From Naegleria gruberi (lineage: Eukaryota): a stretch of DNA of 64,000 nt. The translations under genes were made by a program, and so were the position numbers. This document shows, one piece after another, positions 34,693-48,889 of this stretch (position 1 is its first letter; each line of letters begins with the position of its first letter). Where the stretch lies: NCBI GenBank assembly GCA_000004985.1, contig GG738881.1; one strand, 5' to 3'. The notes under the pieces were generated by a model. The model was not told the origin of the DNA. It saw only the letters and a list, made by a program, of their open reading frames with translations, and did no database searches.

Positions 34693-37231
34693 ATGTCATC
34701 TTTACACCATCAATCCCCAGCTCAAGACGATAACTCTGCTCATAATCGAATAAATGTCTTGTTTGACACTTCTCTCGTAGTGTTTAATCACAACGAAGAT
34801 ACAGTAGACGAAACATCGGAAGAAATTAATATTTTCTTATGGATAAAGACGAAACTTCTCTCCACCATCCGAATGATAGTTTTCGACTATCAAGACAAGG
34901 AAAGATTAGAATTATTCAATAACAGACAAGAAATGCTCTCCAAACGTTTACCACTTTCAGGAATTTTTCATTTAATAATTCTCATTCTCCTGTCAATGAT
35001 AATCGAAAGGTCTGAAGGAGAAGAATCCATTTACTTGTTTCTTATATTGACTGTCATTGAATTCTTTGGAAATATTGGAGTAATTGTCTTGATTTTGAAA
35101 ATGGAATTGCCAATTCTTAATACGGAAATTTGTAATTATTGTAGATTAGTTGCAACTTGTATGATTCGATTGATTTTACAGATTTATTATGGACCATTGT
35201 TTCCTGTGTGGATTTTACAGGTTTATTCAATGATTATTGTGTTGAATGCTTATTATTTCAATAGGGGACCAGCTGTGATTAATTGTTTGATTGTTATTGT
35301 GTTGGGAGCTGTTTCGACTGTACTGAGTCATGTTATTCATTTCGAATATTTTGGAGATAGTTCAATAGAATTTGGACATGAAAGAGTTTGTCATCCGTGT
35401 CGACATTTTGAATATATTCATGAGAGCCAAGTTTCCAATCTTATTAAGGTCATTACATTGCAATCAGTTCTTTGTGGAATAGGTCTCTTATTTTCAGATG
35501 TTTCCATGGAACAGGATGAGAGAAATATTTCACAACAAGTAGAAATTGTCAAGGGAAGAATTTTGAATGAGGAAAAGACCAAATTTATTGGCCATTTGAG
35601 TCATGAAACAAGAAATCCACTCATGGGAAGTATGTTTTTAAATTGAATCGAATATATTTAATTAGCAATAATGATTAGTTATGGGAGCTGCTCAAATTCT
35701 GAAATTTGATTTGGAACAGCAAATGAAACGGAAGAATGTTGCTCTGCAGCATAAATCAATTGTTGAGAAAGTGGATGATATTTACAATAGCTCTGTATTG
35801 TTGTTGCAAATATTGTCAACTTCATTGCAGATTAGTTCTTCAGAGATGGGTGGAGTTCACTTGCAGGGAAGTGAATTTAACATGTTGGAGCTGGTAGAAA
35901 CGATTTGCTCAGTGTTTAGTTCAATTGCTGTGGATAGAGGCATTTCTTTGCAATCTTTTATTGATATTGTGAATATTCCAGATATGATTTATGGAGATAA
36001 TACAAGAGTTTCACAAATATTGATGAATTTTGTTTCGAATAGTTTGAAATATACTCCTAATAAGGGGTCAGTTACTGTAAAATGCACTGTTTCAACTCAA
36101 GAAGAGTTGAACGAGTTTAGAATTGATAAGAAGAAAACTAGTGAACTCATGATGTGTTATCCTGCCGAAAAGTTAGATGTGAATGATTTGATATTTATAA
36201 CCTTTACATGTGCTGATAGTGGATGTGGAATGAATTCCAATCAAATTATCAACCTTTTTTCGAGTAATCAACAGGCCAATCCTTCCATGAGGCCTACTTC
36301 TAGGGCTAGACGAACAGGAAATGATCAATTTATTGAGAGTCATGGGTTTGGATTGAAAATCTCAAAGCATTTGATTGATTTAATGAATGGTAAGATTCAT
36401 ATTAGTAGTGAAATCGGAAAGGGGACAACTATTAAGATTATCATTCCTTTCTTCAAACAGGATAAGAAAGGTATGATTCTCGAGGAACAAATTGAACAAT
36501 TGAGAAATATTTCAAAAGAGAAGGAACTATCCCAAGTTACTGTATCTTTGCTGGATCAAAATAGGATATTAATTAAATATTTGGAATATCTACTTCCAAA
36601 TAATGTAATGATAATCGAGTCAGATGTTGAAAGGGAAGAATCTATGCAAGTGAAAACGATTGATAGAAATTGCTCAGTTTCTCTATTGTCAAAAGGTGAC
36701 ACTACCTCATTGAATTATGAAACTCTATTCCTAGCAAGACCTTTCAAGGTGAAAGATATAATTTCAGTATTGATTGAAAGCATGGCTGGAGATTTTGAAA
36801 TCAACAGTTCAGAAACAGGTTCAGAAATTACAAAGATTCGATCGAGTCGTTCTCTTGACTCATTCACATGCAATATTCTTGTGGTGGATGATAATTCAAT
36901 TAATAGAAAGGTTGTGCACAGATTGTTACAAATTATTGGATATGAGAACATTGATTTTGCTGTGGATGGTCTGCAAGCATTCGAGAAGTTCAAATTGTCC
37001 AACTTCCAGTTTGTATTGATGGATCTAGAAATGCCCAACATGAATGGAAAGGAATCTTGCGAATTAATGAGAAAGTTTGAAATGGAAACCAAACGAAATA
37101 GGGCTGAAATTTTTGCAGTAACTGGAGACATGACACAATCTATGGCAACTTGTGCTGATTTTGATAATATTCTATTCAAGCCAATTTCCAAAGATTCCCT
37201 CAGTTTGACTCTCAATAAGAACACTGACTAA
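34693..37231 (+). CDS. Membrane-bound hybrid sensor histidine kinase (TM sensor region, HisKA, HATPase_c, REC receiver), 2 exons: 34693-35629 and 35679-37231.
   Basis: aaaaATG start. N-terminal ~230 aa has 5-6 hydrophobic helices. H-box FIGHLSHETRNPLMG | (GTATGT...gattag, 49-nt intron, phase 1) | IMGAAQILKF. N-box region (ILMNFVSNSLKYTPNKGSV), G-box GFGLKISKHLIDLMNGKIHISSEIGKGTTIKIIIPF. Receiver ILVVDDNSINRKVVHRLLQIIGYENIDFAVDGLQAFEKF...FVLMDLEMPNMNGKES...IFAVTGDM...FKPISKDSL. Confidence 0.8.
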
Positions 37232-37250: not shown

Positions 37251-39450
37251 TTATTCATCGTGATGGAAAAAGTCATCATCAAATTCGGTGGCGCCAAAAA
37301 CGTCTCTATCAGAATCTGGGAACTCGAAAACATTATCAATATTTGGAGTTTCTGATAATTGGTTTTGGGTATTGCTGTTACTATTTGTAACACTTGGTGT
37401 ATTGGAATCGAGAATTGTTGGTGTTGAAGTTCCTGTTGCTGAATTATTGGTAACTGGAGTACTATTTGAGATTTGTCTATTCATGTCAGTATTATTAACG
37501 TTCATACTATTTGATGTGGTTGATTGCTCATCGTTCAATAAAGATCGTAACTTTTCTTCCACATCTCTACCAACTTTAACTAGAGGGGATTTCAGGAAAT
37601 TTTGAATGGTTTGTTTGGCTTGAGGGGTGGTTGTGGAAACTGGTGCTGGAGAACTCAGCAAATGAGTTATCATTTGAGAAATTTCAGTTCCAGCAGGTCC
37701 ATTAGTGTTAAACATGTTAGGCATATTGGAGTTTGAATCAGTTTCATTTCCAAGTCCAAGATTAACATTCATTTGTTGTTGCTTTTGTGGAGAGAGTGTA
37801 TTAGTACTGTTAAAGTTTGTTTGTTGTGGGTTTGTTGGTTGTTGTTGTTGTTGTCTGTACATGTTTTGTTGTTGTTGAGCAAAATTCAACACTGCATTAT
37901 TATTCATATTTTGTGGAATCATACCATTATTGGTTTGTTGAAAATTATTGATTCCAAGTACTGCTGCATTTTGAAGGTTAATACCAAAATTACCAGCGCC
38001 ATTAACGCCTGGATACACAAATGCTCCATTGTTTGTACTCATACCATTATTGACTTGAATGGTATTTGGTTGATTTGGAATCATTGTGAATGCATTTTGA
38101 CTGGTAACTGGTGAAGATGCAGAATTGTAAGGTGATTGAATATTTCCAGACATAATGCCAATACCTCCCATTGGTTGTTGTACACTAATCATTGAACCAC
38201 CTGTTGGTGTGGATGGCATTTGATTAACAGTGTTATTTTGAACAAGTAAACCTTGTTGTTGCATCATGCTTGCTTGTTCTTTAACCAGTTGATTGAATTG
38301 TGAAATTTGTTCCTTGATCAATAACCTAGTATTGTAAGCTTTGAAAAATTCAGGATTTTGTTGTTCTAATTTGCACCACATCAAGTTAATAAAGGCTCGT
38401 TCAATATTCTCGTATTTCTTACATAAAAAATCCATTGTCTCTTCTTTTGAAAGATAAAGCTTTAGGCATTGCTCAATCAATTGTTGTACCAATTTGATTT
38501 GCTCAACAGAGAATCTTCTCATTCCGTTGGCAGACATACCTGATTGTGTATTTGTTGTTGTATTGGTATTTGATGACAAAACTCCTCCACTATTATTACT
38601 AAGAGGTGTAGTTGATCGTTGCTGTGCTGACATGGTAATTGTATTTGGAACAGTACCACCAGTCATTTGACTCATAGGAGTTGATGGATTTCCCATGTTT
38701 GTCATATTATTCATGTTATTCATAGCATTTACATTGGACATATTCATATTGGCCATGTTTGTCATATTCATGTTATTAATATTCATCGTGTTGGCATCCA
38801 TACCATTGGTAAAACCTCCCATCATTTGTTGTTCGTTGCTAATCATACCATTACCATTAGTTTGTTGCACAATGGTTGTATTATTTGGCATTACTTGCTT
38901 TCCAGGATTTCTTAGATTATTATTGTTGTTTGGGGTGGTTAGTTGTTGTTGTAGGAATTGTAATAAATAGTTACTAGGGTCATTATTATTGTTCATGTTT
39001 TGCATTGGTATATTATTGTTTTGTACGTTCATGTTCATATTCATATTCATAGCTTGGCCATTGGCATTGTTGAGAGGTGTTTGTCCGTTCATCAAGTTAT
39101 TATTATTATTTTGATTCATAGGTTGCTATTGTTATTTTGTTGTTTTACAGTGGTTGGATGATGACATAGTCCACCAAGGAGATGAAATAGATTAATAAAT
39201 GTTAAATAACACTATTACTATTTGAAATACTTACTTGAAGAGCCCTGAACGTGTTGAAGAGTTGTTGGTTGTTTGCCATATTGTTCATGTTATTTGGCAT
39301 TGGATTTGCAACAACTGCTGGATTCATACCCATTTGCATATTTCTATTAACATTGTTGTTATTATTCATGAATGCATTGAAAAGGTGTTGTTGTTGTGGA
39401 TTGAGAACATTGACAATATCGTTGATTGCTTGTGGTGGAATATTACTCAT
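37251..39450 (-). CDS. Asn/Gln-rich low-complexity protein with a conserved central helical domain, 2 exons: 39450-39235 and 39125-37251 (about 695 aa).
   Basis: ATG at 39450. Exon 1 ends ...LFNTFRALQ | GTAAGT; a 109-nt intron ends aacaatag; exon 2 begins QPMNQNNNNNLMNGQ.... Extreme N/Q/M composition (NMNMNMNVQNNN, QQQQQPTNPQQTN). Non-repetitive core ...FSVEQIKLVQQLIEQCLKLYLSKEETMDFLCKKYENIERAFINLMWCKLEQQNPEFFKAYNTRLLIKEQISQFNQLVKEQ. Confidence 0.65.
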
Positions 39451-41004: not shown

Positions 41005-43546
41005 ATGTCAACTATCTCCGTATCACCTTCTGGTAATCCACAGTTTAATGTTGATCTTTGGAAAAACCGTTTAAATACTCACATGCAATTTTTGATCGCT
41101 ATTGGTCAACAAGTTGACTTGTACTTTGCACCAGACAAATTGCAAGACATGGTTAAATTGTACAACATGATGATTCCTCTCGTTTCCAAACATGGATCAC
41201 AAAATGTTTGGCTTCCAGAGTGTGTACAGTGGATTTTCCATTGCCACTTGTTGCATCCTATCGATTTCATGAAGGATTGCGAGTCAAACTTTGGACATTT
41301 GATTTTGTACAATACTCAAGCTCACATGTTAAATTCTGAACAAACAATGAAATGGTTTGAAGAGATGCACCAAGTCAATTTTGAAAATTGTTTGGATCAT
41401 TATGATGAATTGATTGCAAGAGAGAATTCAACTGTTTTCAAGCCATCAAGAGATTTGATTAAGGCTGCTCTCAACCAAAAGACTTTTACCACTCAATGTA
41501 AGCAAGTTTTTGGTGAATCTATTGAAAGCTCCACCCAAATTCAATACATGCTCGACAAGTACTTCAAGTTTATTGTGGCTATCAAGTCAATCATGATTAA
41601 GAGTGATGAACAGAGCTCTGAATTGGAATTCATGTTGGTTCCTACATTGGAAATTGATTTGGTTTGGCATACCCATTTGAGATATCCATATGATTACTTG
41701 ACATTTGTTAAGGAACAAACTGGTTATTTATTGAACCACGAAGATGATTTGGATTCTTTGGATGAAGAATTTGAAATGACCAAAACTTTCTGGAAGAAAC
41801 AATTCAATGAAGATTACGTGAGAACTAACCAACCAGTTGAAAATTCCATGACCCAAAAGGGAGAATGTTGCAATGTTGCCAAGGAAAATATGAATATTGA
41901 AGTATTGTCAACTGAATCCATGACTCAAAAGGGTGATTGTTGTAACATTGCCAAGCAAAACTCCTCTCAACAAATCATTCCAGTAATGAATCAAAAGGGA
42001 GAATGTTGTAATTTAGCCAAACAAAATGTAAATATGCCAATTCTCCAACCATCAATGACTCAAAAAGGTGATTGTTGTAACATTGCTAAGGATAACATCA
42101 ACAGTGAAATTCCAACTCTTGCCATGAATCAAAAGGGAGAATGTTGCAATGTTGCCAAGCAAAACCTCAATGGTGAAGTGCTTCCACCTTCTATGAATCA
42201 AAAAGGAGAGTGTTGTAATGTTGCAAAGATGAATTTGAACGAACCAGTTCTTCAACCATCAATGACTCAAAAGGGAGAATGCTGTAACGTAGCCAAACAA
42301 AATATTGATAAAGAAGTCCTTCCAGTCGGTATGAATCAAAAGGGTGAATGTTGCAATGTAGCTAAACACAACCTTAATGAACCAGTTCTCCAACTTTCCA
42401 TGAATCAAAAGGGAGAGTGTTGTAATGTTGCCAAGAATAATCTTAATGGACCAGTTCTTCAACCATCAATGACCCAAAAGGGTGATTGTTGTAACATTGC
42501 CAAGGATAACGTTAATCGGGAAATTCCAACTCTTGGAATGAATCAAAAGGGAGAATGTTGCAATGTTGCCAAGATGAATTTGAACGAGCCAGTTCTCCAA
42601 CCTGCCATGACCCAAAAGGGTGATTGTTGCAACATTGCCAAACACAATGTTGATATGGAAATTCCAACTCTTGGAATGAATCAAAAAGGTGATTGTTGCA
42701 ATGTAGCCAAACAAAATATTGATAAGGAAGTTCTTCCAGTCGGTATGAATCAAAAGGGTGATTGTTGCAATATTGCCAAGGACAATATCAATCGTGAAAT
42801 TCCAATTCTTGGAATGAATCAAAAGGGAGAATGCTGCAATGTAGCTAAACACAATTTGAACGAACCAGTTCTCCAACTTTCCATGAATCAAAAGGGAGAG
42901 TGTTGTAATGTTGCCAAGACGAACTTTGAACGAGCCAGTTCTCCAACCTGCAATGACCCAAAAGGGAGATTGCTGCAACATTGCCAAACACAATGTTGAT
43001 ATGGAAATTCCATCTCTTGGAATGAATCAAAAAGGTGATTGTTGCAATGTAGCCAAACAAAATATTGATAAGGAAGTCCTTCCAGTTGGTATGAATCAAA
43101 AGGGTGAATGTTGCAATGTTGCCAAACACAACCTTAATGAACCAGTTCTCCAACTTTCTATGAATCAAAAAGGAGAGTGTTGTAATGTTGCAAAGATGAA
43201 TTTGAACGAACCAGTTCTTCAACCATCAATGACCCAAAAGGGTGATTGCTGTAATATTGCTAAGGATAACATTAACAGTGAAATTCCATCTCTTGGAATG
43301 AATCAAAAAGGTGATTGTTGCAATATTGCCAAGATGAATTTGAATGCTGACATTATTCCACTCATGATGACTCAAAAGGGTGATTGCTGTAATTTGGCCA
43401 AGCAAAATGAAATGTTGCCAATTCTCGATCTTGGAATGAATCAAAAAGGAGAATGTTGCAATTTGGCCAAACAAAACGCCACTTGTGTCCTTCTCAGAGT
43501 TGGTCATTTGGAAATTCCAATCCTCAAGCCAGCTTTTGCCTTTTAA
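41005..43546 (+). CDS. Novel protein: ~280-aa N-terminal domain (possibly GRDP/DUF1399-like, contains DLVWHTHLRYPYDY), then about 24 tandem 23-aa repeats M[TN]QKG[DE]CCN[IV]AKxN[IL][ND]xE[IV][LP]x[LP]x. The reading frame is broken by a 1-nt insertion near 42921.
   Basis: ATG at 41005. Unique region to about 41847, then near-identical 69-bp repeats to about 43490, two Cys per repeat. Track ORF 41005-42999 and ORF 42908-43546 are consecutive frames of the same repeat array. The copy at 42915-42930 reads aagacgaactttgaacg, where all other copies read aagatgaatttgaacg. Ends ...CNLAKQNATCVLLRVGHLEIPILKPAFAF*. Confidence 0.6.
41848..43490 (+). repeat. Coding tandem repeat: 69-bp unit, about 24 copies, two alternating sub-types (TQKGDCCNIAKDNIN.EIP.LG and NQKGECCNVAK.NLNEPVLQ.S).
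   Basis: Direct reading. Near-identical 69-mers recur (e.g. atgaatcaaaagggagaatgttgcaatgttgccaa...). Confidence 0.85.
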
Positions 43547-44146: not shown

Positions 44147-44923
44147 ATGATCGGATCATCGGCTATGCTTTATGGAAGCGTGGAGGAACATTGCTTTTCA
44201 AAACTACAACAACAACAAGATCAAGTTGATAATTTATTTAATTTATATAAAGGATCGAAGAGGTCTTCTTCGTTTCCTTCGAACAATTGTCTAAAACGAA
44301 AGTTGGATTCAATGGAAGAGGATCAAAAGACGTGTTGTGATGAATTAGTAGATGAAGAAGCATGTTGTTGTTCGACAAGGAAGAATTATACTAGTAGATC
44401 ATCAACGTTAGCACAATTTGAAGAAAATGATTTGTTTAGAGAAGTAAAGAGAGTTAAAACGAGTTTAACTCTGTCACATTTACAATTATCAACGTCCTCA
44501 TCATCATCATCACTGGTTGATTCGATGGAACAGGATGAAGATGTTGTTAAAGAAAATGTGCAAAGCAAAATAATTCCATGCTACAGTATTTTGAAAACCC
44601 CTAAATCACCCCCTAAATCTAACACTGAAAAGAGTTTATCCAATATAATGATAAAAGAAATTTGGAGGAGAAAACTTCAATCATCCCTAATGAGTCAGTC
44701 AACTGGAGTGTCACAATTACCAAGAACTGAAATTAACTTACATAACGAGTACGATTTTGATGAACCTGAGGAACGAGCAGTAATGCCAAATAGTATACCA
44801 CGAGAAGAGCTAATGAGGAGGCTGAAGACGAGGATTGATTCTGCATCAAATGGAAGGCAGCACCGTTTTGATGATCCTCATTCAACAGGAATCAGTGACG
44901 AGTTTGATATGGCAGATGATTAA
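44147..44923 (+). CDS. Hypothetical acidic protein (258 aa), Ser-rich, no recognised domain.
   Basis: ORF with ATG at 44147. Acidic tracts (SDEFDMADD C-terminus, EDQKTCCDELVDEEACCCS). Confidence 0.35.
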   Translation: MIGSSAMLYGSVEEHCFSKLQQQQDQVDNLFNLYKGSKRSSSFPSNNCLKRKLDSMEEDQKTCCDELVDEEACCCSTRKNYTSRSSTLAQFEENDLFREVKRVKTSLTLSHLQLSTSSSSSSLVDSMEQDEDVVKENVQSKIIPCYSILKTPKSPPKSNTEKSLSNIMIKEIWRRKLQSSLMSQSTGVSQLPRTEINLHNEYDFDEPEERAVMPNSIPREELMRRLKTRIDSASNGRQHRFDDPHSTGISDEFDMADD

Positions 44924-46627: not shown

Positions 46628-48889
46628 TTAGTTCATTTCCAAAGACAAACCTGGATGCACTCTTGTACCAGCTTGATATTTAATTCTCTTGGCAATGACA
46701 ACATTAATAACACAACCAATATGCATTAGAATACCAATAAAGAAACAAGTAATACCTGTAATTAATAATTCCCAAGAAATACCTTTACACACAGCACCAT
46801 CTGTTGCTGTAATATAATTAGCCATATATGTACAACCAGCAACTTCTGCGCCAATTGTTTTAAGTAAGGCATGTGCAAAAGTCAAAACAAAATTGAGTGT
46901 TTCTTGTGGGAATGTGGCAATGAAATTTTGAACATTAGTTGTAAGGAGATCAATTTGAGAAAGGATATTTGATGTCAAGGTACCAAATGAACTGACCAAA
47001 GTCTTAGCAGATGCAACATCAACAATTAAAGCATCCATATTGGCATTAATAATGTTCAAGGTTTGATTGTAGGAGGCAATTTCTGCCAAGGCTGCCAGTT
47101 GAGTATTGTGTTGTAATCTGGTTGCATTCTTGAGTGTTTCACCTTCAACTTTGTCAGAGTTTGAGGCAAGTCCGGAAGGATCAAATGTTTCAAAATTATC
47201 ATACGTATAGGTAGCTGATATTTTGGCAGTGGTGAATGCATTGAGAGCATTAAGAGCAGCATCAAAATCTGTTGCATTGAAACCGGAAAAACCAGAAAGA
47301 TTATTCAATGATGAAGTACCATTTGCAAGTTTGGCCCTAGCATCAGTGAGGGTACTTGTATAGTCAACATTGATAGAGCCAATAGAAGATGTGGTCATGG
47401 AATTCTTTGCACTTTCGGTAACAGAAGAAATGTTAAAAACTGAAGCTTGGGTGCTGAATGAATCAGTTACAGAAACGAGCATACTGTTAATACCCAAAGC
47501 AGAGAATGCATCAGTACCAAATACAACATCAATCAAAGATTGACCATCTTTACAGGTAGACATGGTTGTTAACATTACAGAAACGTTTTGGAATTTGATT
47601 CCACCAGTTCCAGTGAGCATACTTGACAAAGCTTGATCACCGATAGATCCAACAGTTTTTGGACCATTTGTGCATACTTCATTGATAAGCATAAATGCTG
47701 GAACTTGAATACCTGCCAAAAGAATGAAAATCCAAGCAGTAATAAAGGCCAATGTAGTTGTAATATGTACACACCAAGTCTTTCTGAAAATAATACCAAT
47801 AAATACAAAAATGTAGATTATTCCACACCAACAGAAGAGGACAATGGAAAGTGAAACTCTAATATTTTCAGCAAGCTTGGAATAAGTCTTAGCGTCATTA
47901 ACTGTTTGATTGTTTAGGTAGGTGTCAACTGAGGATTGAATTGAAGCAATAGGTTGTTGAATACTTCCCAAAGCGCTACTGAGTGAAGGACCAAATTGGC
48001 TTGAAATTGTGTCATTGATAAGACTTTTAACTGAACTAATCTTGGTCTTGATGGTATCTTTTCCAGAATCAATCGATGATTTGGCAGATGTAATTGCTTG
48101 CAAGCCAGATGTAATGGAAGGAGAAACAGTTGATTTGATATCAGGAATTTCACTAGAGGCTGGAACTCCACTAAGTTTTGGACTAGCTCTCAAAGTGTCG
48201 ATACCACTTCTAATATTTACAACTTCCTTGTTGATATTTTCAATGGTGGATGAGTTGAAGGTGCCTAGTTGTGTGATTGTGTTTCCAACAAGAGTTGAAA
48301 TTGTATCTAGAGGTGCAGTTGCATTCAGAGCCTTATTTAAAAGTGGATCGATCGCATCTGGGAGTCCATTTAATTGAGTGGTAATAATGGCTGGGAGATT
48401 ACCAACATTTTTCAGGGAACCAGTGACACTGCTAGTAAATGTCAAAGTTTCATCAATCATGACTCTCACGTGTGTTGAACCTTGGGCAGAGAAGATCACA
48501 CCAATAATTCCCAATAGAATAAAGCAACAATAGAGCACAGCCAAGACAATAGCTGGAGCAATAAGGTGCTTTCTCTTGTAGGCCTCAGATGATGTTGGTA
48601 CATTTGAACCACAGAACCCACAACATCTACAACAACAGAATATCATTATTGCAATATAACCAATCACACCAAACAGAATGGGGATCACAAGGAAAATTGC
48701 TAAGAAAATAGCATACTCTATATATTTAGCTCCATCTAGAACCTCCTCCGAAGACGTTGGGAGGGCTGTCCTCACTGTCTTAACTTGCCCCATAGTAAAG
48801 GCAATATTCTGGGCATTTACTGTTGTAAGGATGATAAGGAATACAAATATTATGTACAAGGAAAATCTAGGGACAATTTGAAACGACAT
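46628..48889 (-). CDS. Prominin-like pentaspan membrane glycoprotein (753 aa).
   Basis: ATG at 48889. Signal peptide MSFQIVPRFSLYIIFVFLIILTTVNAQ. TM1 followed by a Cys cluster (IMIFCCCRCCGFCG). TM2, a ~250-aa Ser/Thr/N-glycosite-rich loop, TM3, TM4, a second large loop, TM5, short tail. Topology and the post-TM1 Cys cluster match prominins. Confidence 0.5.
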   Translation of the reverse strand: MSFQIVPRFSLYIIFVFLIILTTVNAQNIAFTMGQVKTVRTALPTSSEEVLDGAKYIEYAIFLAIFLVIPILFGVIGYIAIMIFCCCRCCGFCGSNVPTSSEAYKRKHLIAPAIVLAVLYCCFILLGIIGVIFSAQGSTHVRVMIDETLTFTSSVTGSLKNVGNLPAIITTQLNGLPDAIDPLLNKALNATAPLDTISTLVGNTITQLGTFNSSTIENINKEVVNIRSGIDTLRASPKLSGVPASSEIPDIKSTVSPSITSGLQAITSAKSSIDSGKDTIKTKISSVKSLINDTISSQFGPSLSSALGSIQQPIASIQSSVDTYLNNQTVNDAKTYSKLAENIRVSLSIVLFCWCGIIYIFVFIGIIFRKTWCVHITTTLAFITAWIFILLAGIQVPAFMLINEVCTNGPKTVGSIGDQALSSMLTGTGGIKFQNVSVMLTTMSTCKDGQSLIDVVFGTDAFSALGINSMLVSVTDSFSTQASVFNISSVTESAKNSMTTSSIGSINVDYTSTLTDARAKLANGTSSLNNLSGFSGFNATDFDAALNALNAFTTAKISATYTYDNFETFDPSGLASNSDKVEGETLKNATRLQHNTQLAALAEIASYNQTLNIINANMDALIVDVASAKTLVSSFGTLTSNILSQIDLLTTNVQNFIATFPQETLNFVLTFAHALLKTIGAEVAGCTYMANYITATDGAVCKGISWELLITGITCFFIGILMHIGCVINVVIAKRIKYQAGTRVHPGLSLEMN

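Follow-up and report, generated by a model that had tools for sequence, protein, structure and literature searches.

An unannotated Naegleria gruberi gene of the DUF1399/GRDP family with a duplicated helical domain and a tail of 24 Cys-Cys units

Positions 41005 to 43546 of a 64,000-nucleotide stretch of Naegleria gruberi DNA (contig GG738881.1; the whole stretch is hereafter called the window) hold what we are highly confident is an unannotated protein-coding gene of the eukaryotic DUF1399/GRDP family. Its product would join a duplicated all-alpha module of 281 amino acids to a disordered tail of 565 amino acids derived by 24-fold amplification of a single tail, and the Naegleria protein is thus an extreme member of a known family. 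The best explanation of the locus as a whole, which we put forward tentatively, is a DUF1399/GRDP gene with a putative metal- or redox-handling tail. The features on which this account is built are as follows.

41005 to 41847, plus strand: GRDP-like (DUF1399) domain, amino acids 1-281, made of two tandem ~85-residue WHxH..P..Y..D helical modules (PF07173, hhalign and AlphaFold2 [AF2])
41236 to 41247, plus strand: first His motif, F78-H79-C80-H81, with H81 invariant in an alignment of 76 sequences
41665 to 41676, plus strand: second His motif, W221-H222-T223-H224, with H222 invariant and W221 and H224 at least 90% conserved in the alignment
41731 to 41745, plus strand: L-N-H245-E-D247 strand, with D247 invariant and H245 at least 90% conserved in the alignment; AF2 places a strand at residues 243-246
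41848 to 43504, plus strand: array of 24 tandem peptide units of 69 nucleotides (23 amino acids), predicted to be disordered (Tandem Repeats Finder [TRF], unit table, per-codon table and substitution rates)
42924, plus strand: single extra C in unit 16 (open reading frame list and comparison with sister unit 11), which splits the gene into 41005-42999 and 42908-43546
43505 to 43546, plus strand: unique C-terminal tail HLEIPILKPAFAF (13 amino acids) and stop codon, which together with unit 24 is the counterpart of the single tail in the closest relatives

An initial annotation, made from the letters of the DNA, had treated the whole interval as one gene. The list of open reading frames (ORFs) of the window contains two ORFs in different frames, at 41005-42999 (664 amino acids) and 42908-43546 (212 amino acids). 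The frame is broken by the extra C at 42924, where unit 16 reads AAGACGAACTTTGAACGAGCC and its sister unit 11 reads AAGATGAATTTGAACGAGCC; with this base removed, conceptual translation gives an 846-amino-acid protein composed of 281 unique residues, 24 units and a 13-residue end. All 212 codons after the shift remain open in a genome of 34% GC and retain the conserved motif, which makes the lesion either an error of the consensus or a very recent change. It sits inside one of the few recent block copies of the array. An intron that would remove the frameshift is unlikely, the only donor-like site within 300 nucleotides (GGTATGA, 42743) being ordinary coding sequence that recurs in other units.

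Three long ORFs elsewhere in the window match annotated N. gruberi proteins exactly (EFC42129, EFC42132 and EFC42140, from a 379,849-bp scaffold). The source is therefore a heterolobosean and not an amoebozoan, which takes away the ground for the earlier suggestion that orthologues be sought in Amoebozoa. Neither of the two ORFs, nor a close match to them, was found in the protein collections (NCBI, UniRef and the EukProt N. gruberi sets as represented there). The N. gruberi annotation seems to lack the array gene, and the gap at 41005-43546 was probably caused by the one-base frameshift.

The 281 amino acids ahead of the array are non-repetitive, as had been noted (~280 residues of unique sequence), and contain DLVWHTHLRYPYDY. 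A resemblance of this region to the GRDP/DUF1399 family had been pointed out, with a profile search for PF07173 proposed as the check, and that search bore it out: PF07173 matched the 664-residue ORF with 41.1 bits and residues 1-327 with 42.9 bits, against a gathering cut-off of 22.7 bits. All 76 aligned relatives also match PF07173. No other family was found in the Pfam search, which returned neither DnaJ nor PF25334, and no metallothionein family at E ≤ 1; NCBIfam gave no match.

Within the domain, a profile-profile comparison (hhalign) of residues 40-125 with residues 180-265 gave a probability of 99.5% (E = 9e-23). The two halves therefore derive from one internally duplicated module, with the pattern 'RY..F..(n)..P..DIDLIWHxH.L.P..Y..D....G..L.H'. 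In the 76-sequence alignment H81, P213, H222, Y231 and D247 are invariant, and L30, Y53, L83, P85, Y88, D91, Q158, F161, Y186, D218, W221, H224, H245 and W263 are at least 90% conserved. The conserved His/Asp set comprises five His and three Asp (H79/H81, D91, D218, H222/H224, H245 and D247), to which conserved aromatic residues are added. AF2 modeled the domain as all-alpha over residues 16-267, with a predicted local distance difference test score (pLDDT) of 84 and a predicted template modeling score (pTM) of 0.84; the repeats begin 15 residues after the last domain helix. Searches of PDB sequences, whether by the single protein or by the family profile, returned nothing meaningful, and structure comparison found no solved relative of the fold and no match to any enzyme.

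The tandem 69-bp array lies where it had first been described. TRF reported a period of 69 with 21.6 copies, 68% matches and a score of 734, together with higher-order periods of 138 and 276, and conceptual translation resolves 24 units, of which 22 are exactly 23 amino acids long, one is 24 and one is 22. Every unit does contain two adjacent cysteines, as first reported, set inside M-[TN]-Q-K-G-[DE]-C-C-N-[VIL]-A-K. The Met at unit position 1 is invariant along with the Cys-Cys pair (24/24 units), and each pair has Lys at -3 and +4 and a hydrophobic residue at +2, while the second half of the unit is variable (N-[LIV]-[ND]-x-[EP]-[VI]-[LP]-x-x-x). The expected tryptic peptides GECCNVAK and GDCCNIAK recur about 10 times each. 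The count of pairs, given initially as roughly 48, comes to 24, or 48 Cys; a further Cys in the last unit brings the total to 49. Nor is the array almost perfect or built of two alternating sub-types: mean pairwise DNA identity between units is 70%, and there are three sub-types (..NLNEPVLQPS, ..NI[ND]xEIPTLG and ..QNIDKEVLPVG) that do not strictly alternate. Over its 565 residues the tail has 49 Cys (8.7%), with pairs 21 residues apart, about 25% Leu/Val/Ile/Met and 36 Gly (6%), and AF2 predicts it to be disordered (pLDDT < 50). When 10 units of the repeat were searched on their own against 5.8 billion proteins, no match at E ≤ 10 was obtained, in line with the original remark that it could be assigned to no repeat family.

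Pairwise DNA identity between units spans 54 to 100%, and the divergence is distributed unevenly along the unit. By the Nei-Gojobori method, codons 1-12, which hold the Cys-Cys half, show a nonsynonymous divergence (dN) of 0.05 and a synonymous divergence (dS) of 1.18 between units (dN/dS ~0.04), while codons 13-23, the variable half, show a dN of 0.68 and a dS of 1.11 (dN/dS ~0.6). Variation in codons 1-12 is nearly all synonymous (AAG/AAA, GGA/GGT, TGT/TGC, AAT/AAC and GCC/GCT/GCA). With dS near saturation (~1.2) and dN low on the Cys-Cys half, most units are therefore old duplicates kept by strong purifying selection on that half, and the substitution pattern marks the array as real coding sequence. 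This contradicts the recent expansion or concerted evolution that had been read from a supposedly high DNA identity; only a few block copies are recent: units 11-13 and 16-18 (94-97%), 6 and 20 (100%), and 8 and 19 (96%).

The near-identical units (6 and 20; 11-13 and 16-18) would also be expected if mis-assembly had inflated the array from a true locus with far fewer units, and the copy number there could be off by one block. On a gross scale such an artefact is extremely unlikely because most units are distinct. They differ at ~30% of bases and have unique variable halves; the placement of reads is unambiguous, and the pattern is not that of a perfect repeat collapsed or inflated in assembly. 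A decaying young pseudogene or a neutral repeat expansion, in which the frameshift is real and the locus makes no functional protein, would account for the one-base insertion and for the absence of the gene from every protein collection searched, and it draws on the fact that the gene is known here from sequence alone. We nevertheless regard this as very unlikely, given that there is a single lesion in 2.5 kb, that the frame beyond it stays open with the conserved core kept, and that strong purifying selection extends across the units, including units 17-24. Even a truncated product would still have the domain and 15 intact units.

A family search (HMMER, 1.84 billion representatives) returned 1064 matches at E ≤ 1e-3 and only two at E ≤ 1e-30, and a search with the full-length protein found only one relative. 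The closest relatives, P0001 (45% identity) and P0005 (48%), are both ~280 amino acids long and end with one unit-like tail at an equal distance from the domain: P0001 ends in ..ESIAKKAECCCTNKNSALCTLIPVQDSVLHVLPQEIVLYA (terminus ..KKAECCCTNKNSALCTLIPVQDSVLHVLPQEIVLYA) and P0005 in ..EMIHKKATCCCNAVDNEKAETVLAVMDEPIPVQLEM.. (terminus ..KKATCCCNAVDNEKAETVLAVMDEPIPVQLEM..). Unit 1 of the Naegleria array aligns with both CC(C) tails, C288 is invariant among the four closest sequences, and the last unit with the end that follows it (..KGECCNLAKQNATCVLLRVGHLEIPILKPAFAF) resembles the whole ancestral tail. Since the closest relatives have single unit-like tails that can be aligned with unit 1, the array thus derives from a single ancestral 'KKAxCC(C)...hydrophobic' tail by 24-fold tandem amplification.

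A scan of metagenomes yielded 11 further distant family members, which reach no more than 45% identity in short segments; the scan turned up no second CC array. The gene for P0001 lies at 9230-10075 of L001, a 17-kb eukaryotic metagenome contig of 33.5% GC (JGI 3300062347). It is neighbored there by eRF1-like, PTEN-like and WLS-like genes, and we found no synteny between L001 and the Naegleria window.

The initial annotation had called a GRDP-like domain with a Cys-bearing array a new domain combination. We surveyed the tails of the 150 best family representatives. At least four Cys were present in the last 60 amino acids of 52 of the 150, and the mean Cys fraction was 5.4% in the last 60 amino acids vs 2.1% elsewhere. 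Several members carry tandem Cys units: P0121 (AQCGSCKSGGCSSIHKPVES, 10 copies), P0113 (ASCLPGGCVLGGCVSKANKK, about 9), the Cavostelium apophysatum transcript P0028 (ASCGSGCGANKVANANSP, 12), P0041 (KCGGCGAGGCGNN..., 8) and P0103 from Gypsophila vaccaria (ARCWCMAEAASSDASDKCGGQVTNAG, 12), with units of 17-26 amino acids. In plants, the GRDP2 tail is glycine-rich 'with interspersed cysteine residues' and has the consensus [CG]GGGCGG[GC] (PMC4299439), and the family is defined by DUF1399 and a C-terminal glycine-rich domain (PMC13001069). Given the frequency of Cys tails and this definition, a domain followed by a Cys tail is therefore the family norm and not a new combination.

About 17 further representatives end in a conserved ..N.C.VASH[RK]. 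The same ending closes a large animal-type subgroup (...EQ[LM]WGP[VI]PLP.LP.G..N.C.VASH[RK]), in which a Cys is again conserved a few residues before the C-terminus; the subgroup includes P0022, P0029, P0048, P0050, P0058, P0059, P0077, P0083, P0084, P0090 and others, and the named matches tied to it in the family search include molluscs and Saccoglossus. Three of the distant metagenome members (L019, L021 and L022) start with MG, for example MGHHITTLNQKNYTSRIETK or MGQHTSVLNVKNYTSRIETK, and end in long (SCGGGGGA)n...(CGDGGGG)nCGD tails; Gly2 of these proteins might be a putative myristoylation site. Named family members come from plants, molluscs, a hemichordate, early-diverging fungi and amoebozoans. 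A scan of 596 Gb of prokaryotic genomes for P-x4-D-x2-WH[TS]H-x3-P-x2-Y gave 17 matches, none of which was a true homologue by the family hidden Markov model. As all of these prokaryotic matches are due to chance, there is no operon context to guide function, and the family appears to be eukaryotic as far as the scanned motif can detect.

As to function, the reading that we favor, possible but doubtful, is that the protein handles metals or redox equivalents, its tail units binding ions or reducing equivalents or ferrying them to the His/Asp site of the domain. A metal centre is suggested by the conserved His/Asp residues in a duplicated helical module, and thiol chemistry connected with it is suggested by Cys being the only feature common to otherwise unrelated tails. 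The paired WHxH/His-Asp motifs would form a mono- or binuclear metal centre, and the flexible tail would present 24 identical Met...Cys-Cys ligand sets; an invariant Met with Cys-Cys on a disordered chain is a plausible soft-metal ligand set. The units might then serve as binding sites or buffers for soft metal ions (Cu(I), Zn, Cd); alternatively, redox equivalents might travel to the centre and back on one unit at a time, in the manner of the swinging C-terminal vicinal-dithiol tail of MerA or thioredoxin reductase multiplied 24 times. To the computed family assignment, internal duplication, conserved His/Asp set, selection on the Cys-Cys core and derivation of the array, this adds a metal occupancy, a thiol chemistry and a docking of the tail that we infer. 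A weak circumstantial hint comes from wheat, in which Fe starvation induces a DUF1399 gene that appears in a list of metal transporters (PMC6859736). The two AF2 models that we compared each show the LLNH strand paired with a short strand from the tail; in the Naegleria model the latter is the first CCNV, lying beside the LLNH245 strand with a pLDDT of only ~52.

Several points weigh against a metal- or redox-handling role. The P0001 model docks a different segment of its tail, and the docking is of low confidence in both. At only 8.7% Cys, and with long hydrophobic and Pro-containing spacers, the tail is unlike true metallothioneins, and 12-14 residues are conserved per unit, beyond the needs of a simple thiolate ligand set. 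The assembled sequence of the array gene carries a frameshift. In the literature on DUF1399 we found no biochemical datum on the domain, the plant reports offering only phenotypes and an interaction with rhamnose synthase; we also found no report of a Naegleria protein with such a domain and CC array. The phenotypes described in the plant GRDP papers concern growth, stress and seed size (PMC4299439, PMC13001069).

That selection acts on 12 residues and not just on the Cys (a conserved 12-residue core with a variable spacer, repeated 24 times, with a core dN/dS of ~0.04) would suit a fused multi-core precursor resembling those of ribosomally synthesized and post-translationally modified peptides (RiPPs). 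On this reading the domain, as a metalloenzyme, would act on its own tail and modify the Cys-Cys cores there, either in cis or, within an oligomer, in trans, and the 24 units would afterwards be released as peptides. An invariant Cys core with a variable linker stands behind the same domain in unrelated lineages (P0121, P0113, P0028, P0041 and P0103), the domain being conserved while the cores diverge widely; its His/Asp-rich set looks catalytic rather than structural, and a fold with no solved relative leaves room for a novel enzyme activity. We consider such a precursor unlikely, however, as the unit borders show no recognizable protease site (dibasic, Kex2-like), a signal peptide is absent, and in many family members the tail is of a simple GGGC kind or a Cys tail is missing altogether. 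Plant GRDP1 is moreover a cytoplasmic interaction partner of RHM1, and neither a product, nor partner genes, nor a bacterial operon context is at hand. Taken further, to the proposal that DUF1399/GRDP is an unrecognized eukaryotic metalloenzyme acting on its own fused Cys repeat tail, with the N. gruberi gene a 24-core precursor of Cys-modified peptides, the idea becomes distinctly improbable.

The many conserved non-Cys positions would equally suit a recognition motif, and the Lys at -3/+4 and the hydrophobic residue at +2 around each pair, on a disordered tail, could belong to a non-catalytic scaffold. The Cys-Cys units would in that case be S-acylation sites (a membrane tether of the cysteine-string kind) or multivalent short linear motifs that bind partners. 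GhGRDP1, which is cytoplasmic and endoplasmic reticulum (ER)-associated and works via protein interaction (PMC13001069), is consistent with such a role. A scaffold is nonetheless improbable in our view: it leaves the invariant His/Asp set of the domain unexplained, and Cys alone is common to the unrelated family tails, which points to thiol chemistry rather than to a peptide-binding motif.

Around the array gene, the next ORF downstream (44147-44923, plus strand, 258 amino acids, no Pfam match) also has vicinal Cys runs (...EEDQKTCCDELVDEEACCCSTRK...). On the minus strand, 37251-39119 encodes a 622-residue Asn/Gln-rich protein that matches PF09713 'A_thal_3526' (plant protein 1589) with 73 bits, a plant-named domain in a heterolobosean. 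The remaining neighbors are a hybrid histidine kinase/receiver protein (35681-37231, plus strand), a Prominin-like membrane protein (46628-48889, minus strand, 46 bits) and the annotated IQCH-like ATP-grasp protein EFC42140 (51885-54890, plus strand); these three have no evident functional link to the array gene.

Seed size, stress tolerance and cell death are influenced by the plant GRDP proteins, of which DUF1399 is the defining domain. The present analysis shows this domain to be a duplicated His-motif module that has no solved structural relative and is followed, time and again across protists, plants and animals, by Cys-bearing tails. The Naegleria protein offers the clearest natural case, in which the bare domain is followed directly by 24 strongly selected Cys-Cys peptides with no confounding domains, and it is a convenient protein for testing metal and thiol handling by the family; the analysis also supplies a gene model that the N. 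gruberi annotation lacked. If the domain did act on its own tail, this would establish a new class, present across eukaryotes, of ribosomally made peptides or metallophores fused to their enzyme, and would explain why unrelated Cys cores stand behind the same domain in unrelated lineages. The chance that the Naegleria protein reveals such a class of enzyme-fused Cys peptides is small.

Among known systems, metallothioneins, including the long repeat-built Cryptococcus Cmt1 and Cmt2, share repeated Cys segments, CC pairs and a cytosolic location with the array, which makes the soft-metal analogy plausible. They are, however, small proteins with 15-30% Cys, few hydrophobic residues and no enzyme-like domain, whereas the Naegleria protein has 846 residues, including a 281-residue domain. 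On composition, membership among metallothioneins is accordingly rejected, the 8.7% Cys of the tail, present as CC pairs only, falling below a level of at least ~15% in CxC/CxxC/CC clusters and no metallothionein Pfam family matching. Cysteine-string protein (DnaJC5), which has a J domain and 12-14 Cys within ~25 amino acids, was likewise set aside, as there is no DnaJ match and the Cys form 24 isolated pairs.

Fungal borosin and dikaritin precursors and plant BURP-domain cyclases are the analogues for a RiPP-like precursor. In burpitides (BURP-domain cyclases) and borosin precursors a His-motif metal domain and tandem short cores share one polypeptide, and the likeness is one of analogy only. 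Their cores are Tyr/Trp-based, whereas those of Naegleria are Cys-based and accompanied by neither a BURP (PF03181) nor a methyltransferase domain; of the marks of a fused multi-core RiPP, Naegleria has tandem cores with variable spacers (24 units) but no recognized modifying-enzyme domain. MerA (Cys-Cys) and mammalian thioredoxin reductase (Gly-Cys-Sec-Gly) carry a vicinal pair on a flexible C-terminal extension that begins shortly behind their catalytic domain, much as the Cys tails of P0001 and P0005 stand behind the GRDP-like domain. Their folds and cofactors are unrelated to the GRDP domain, and they have one pair, not 24.

Other parallels lie within the family. Plant GRDPs (AtGRDP1/At2g22660, AtGRDP2/At4g37900, GhGRDP1 and OsGRDP1) have the same PF07173 domain with its duplicated WHxH..P..Y..D module, and a C-terminal low-complexity region with regularly spaced Cys, just as Naegleria has interspersed Cys. 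They differ in having a middle C2_GRDP domain (PF25334) and a putative RNP-1 motif, neither of which is found in the Naegleria protein, and in a Gly-rich tail, where the Naegleria tail has 6% Gly, no GGGC motif and 24 vicinal Cys-Cys units of 23 amino acids. One plant member, GhGRDP1, activates rhamnose synthase by binding and localizes to the cytoplasm and ER (PMC13001069). The tandem-Cys GRDP-like proteins P0028, P0121, P0113, P0041 and P0103 (P0121, P0113 and P0041 being metagenomic or unassigned sequences) offer a second parallel, as in each the domain is followed by 8-12 units of 17-26 amino acids with an invariant Cys core and a variable linker, as in Naegleria. Their cores are of CxxC, CxxxxC and CxC types with two or three spaced Cys (CGSGCGA, CGSCKSGGC, RCWC), not the vicinal CC of Naegleria, and their copy number is half or less of its own. 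What is new in the Naegleria protein, then, is the vicinal Cys-Cys core, the 23-residue unit with no sequence match, and the copy number.

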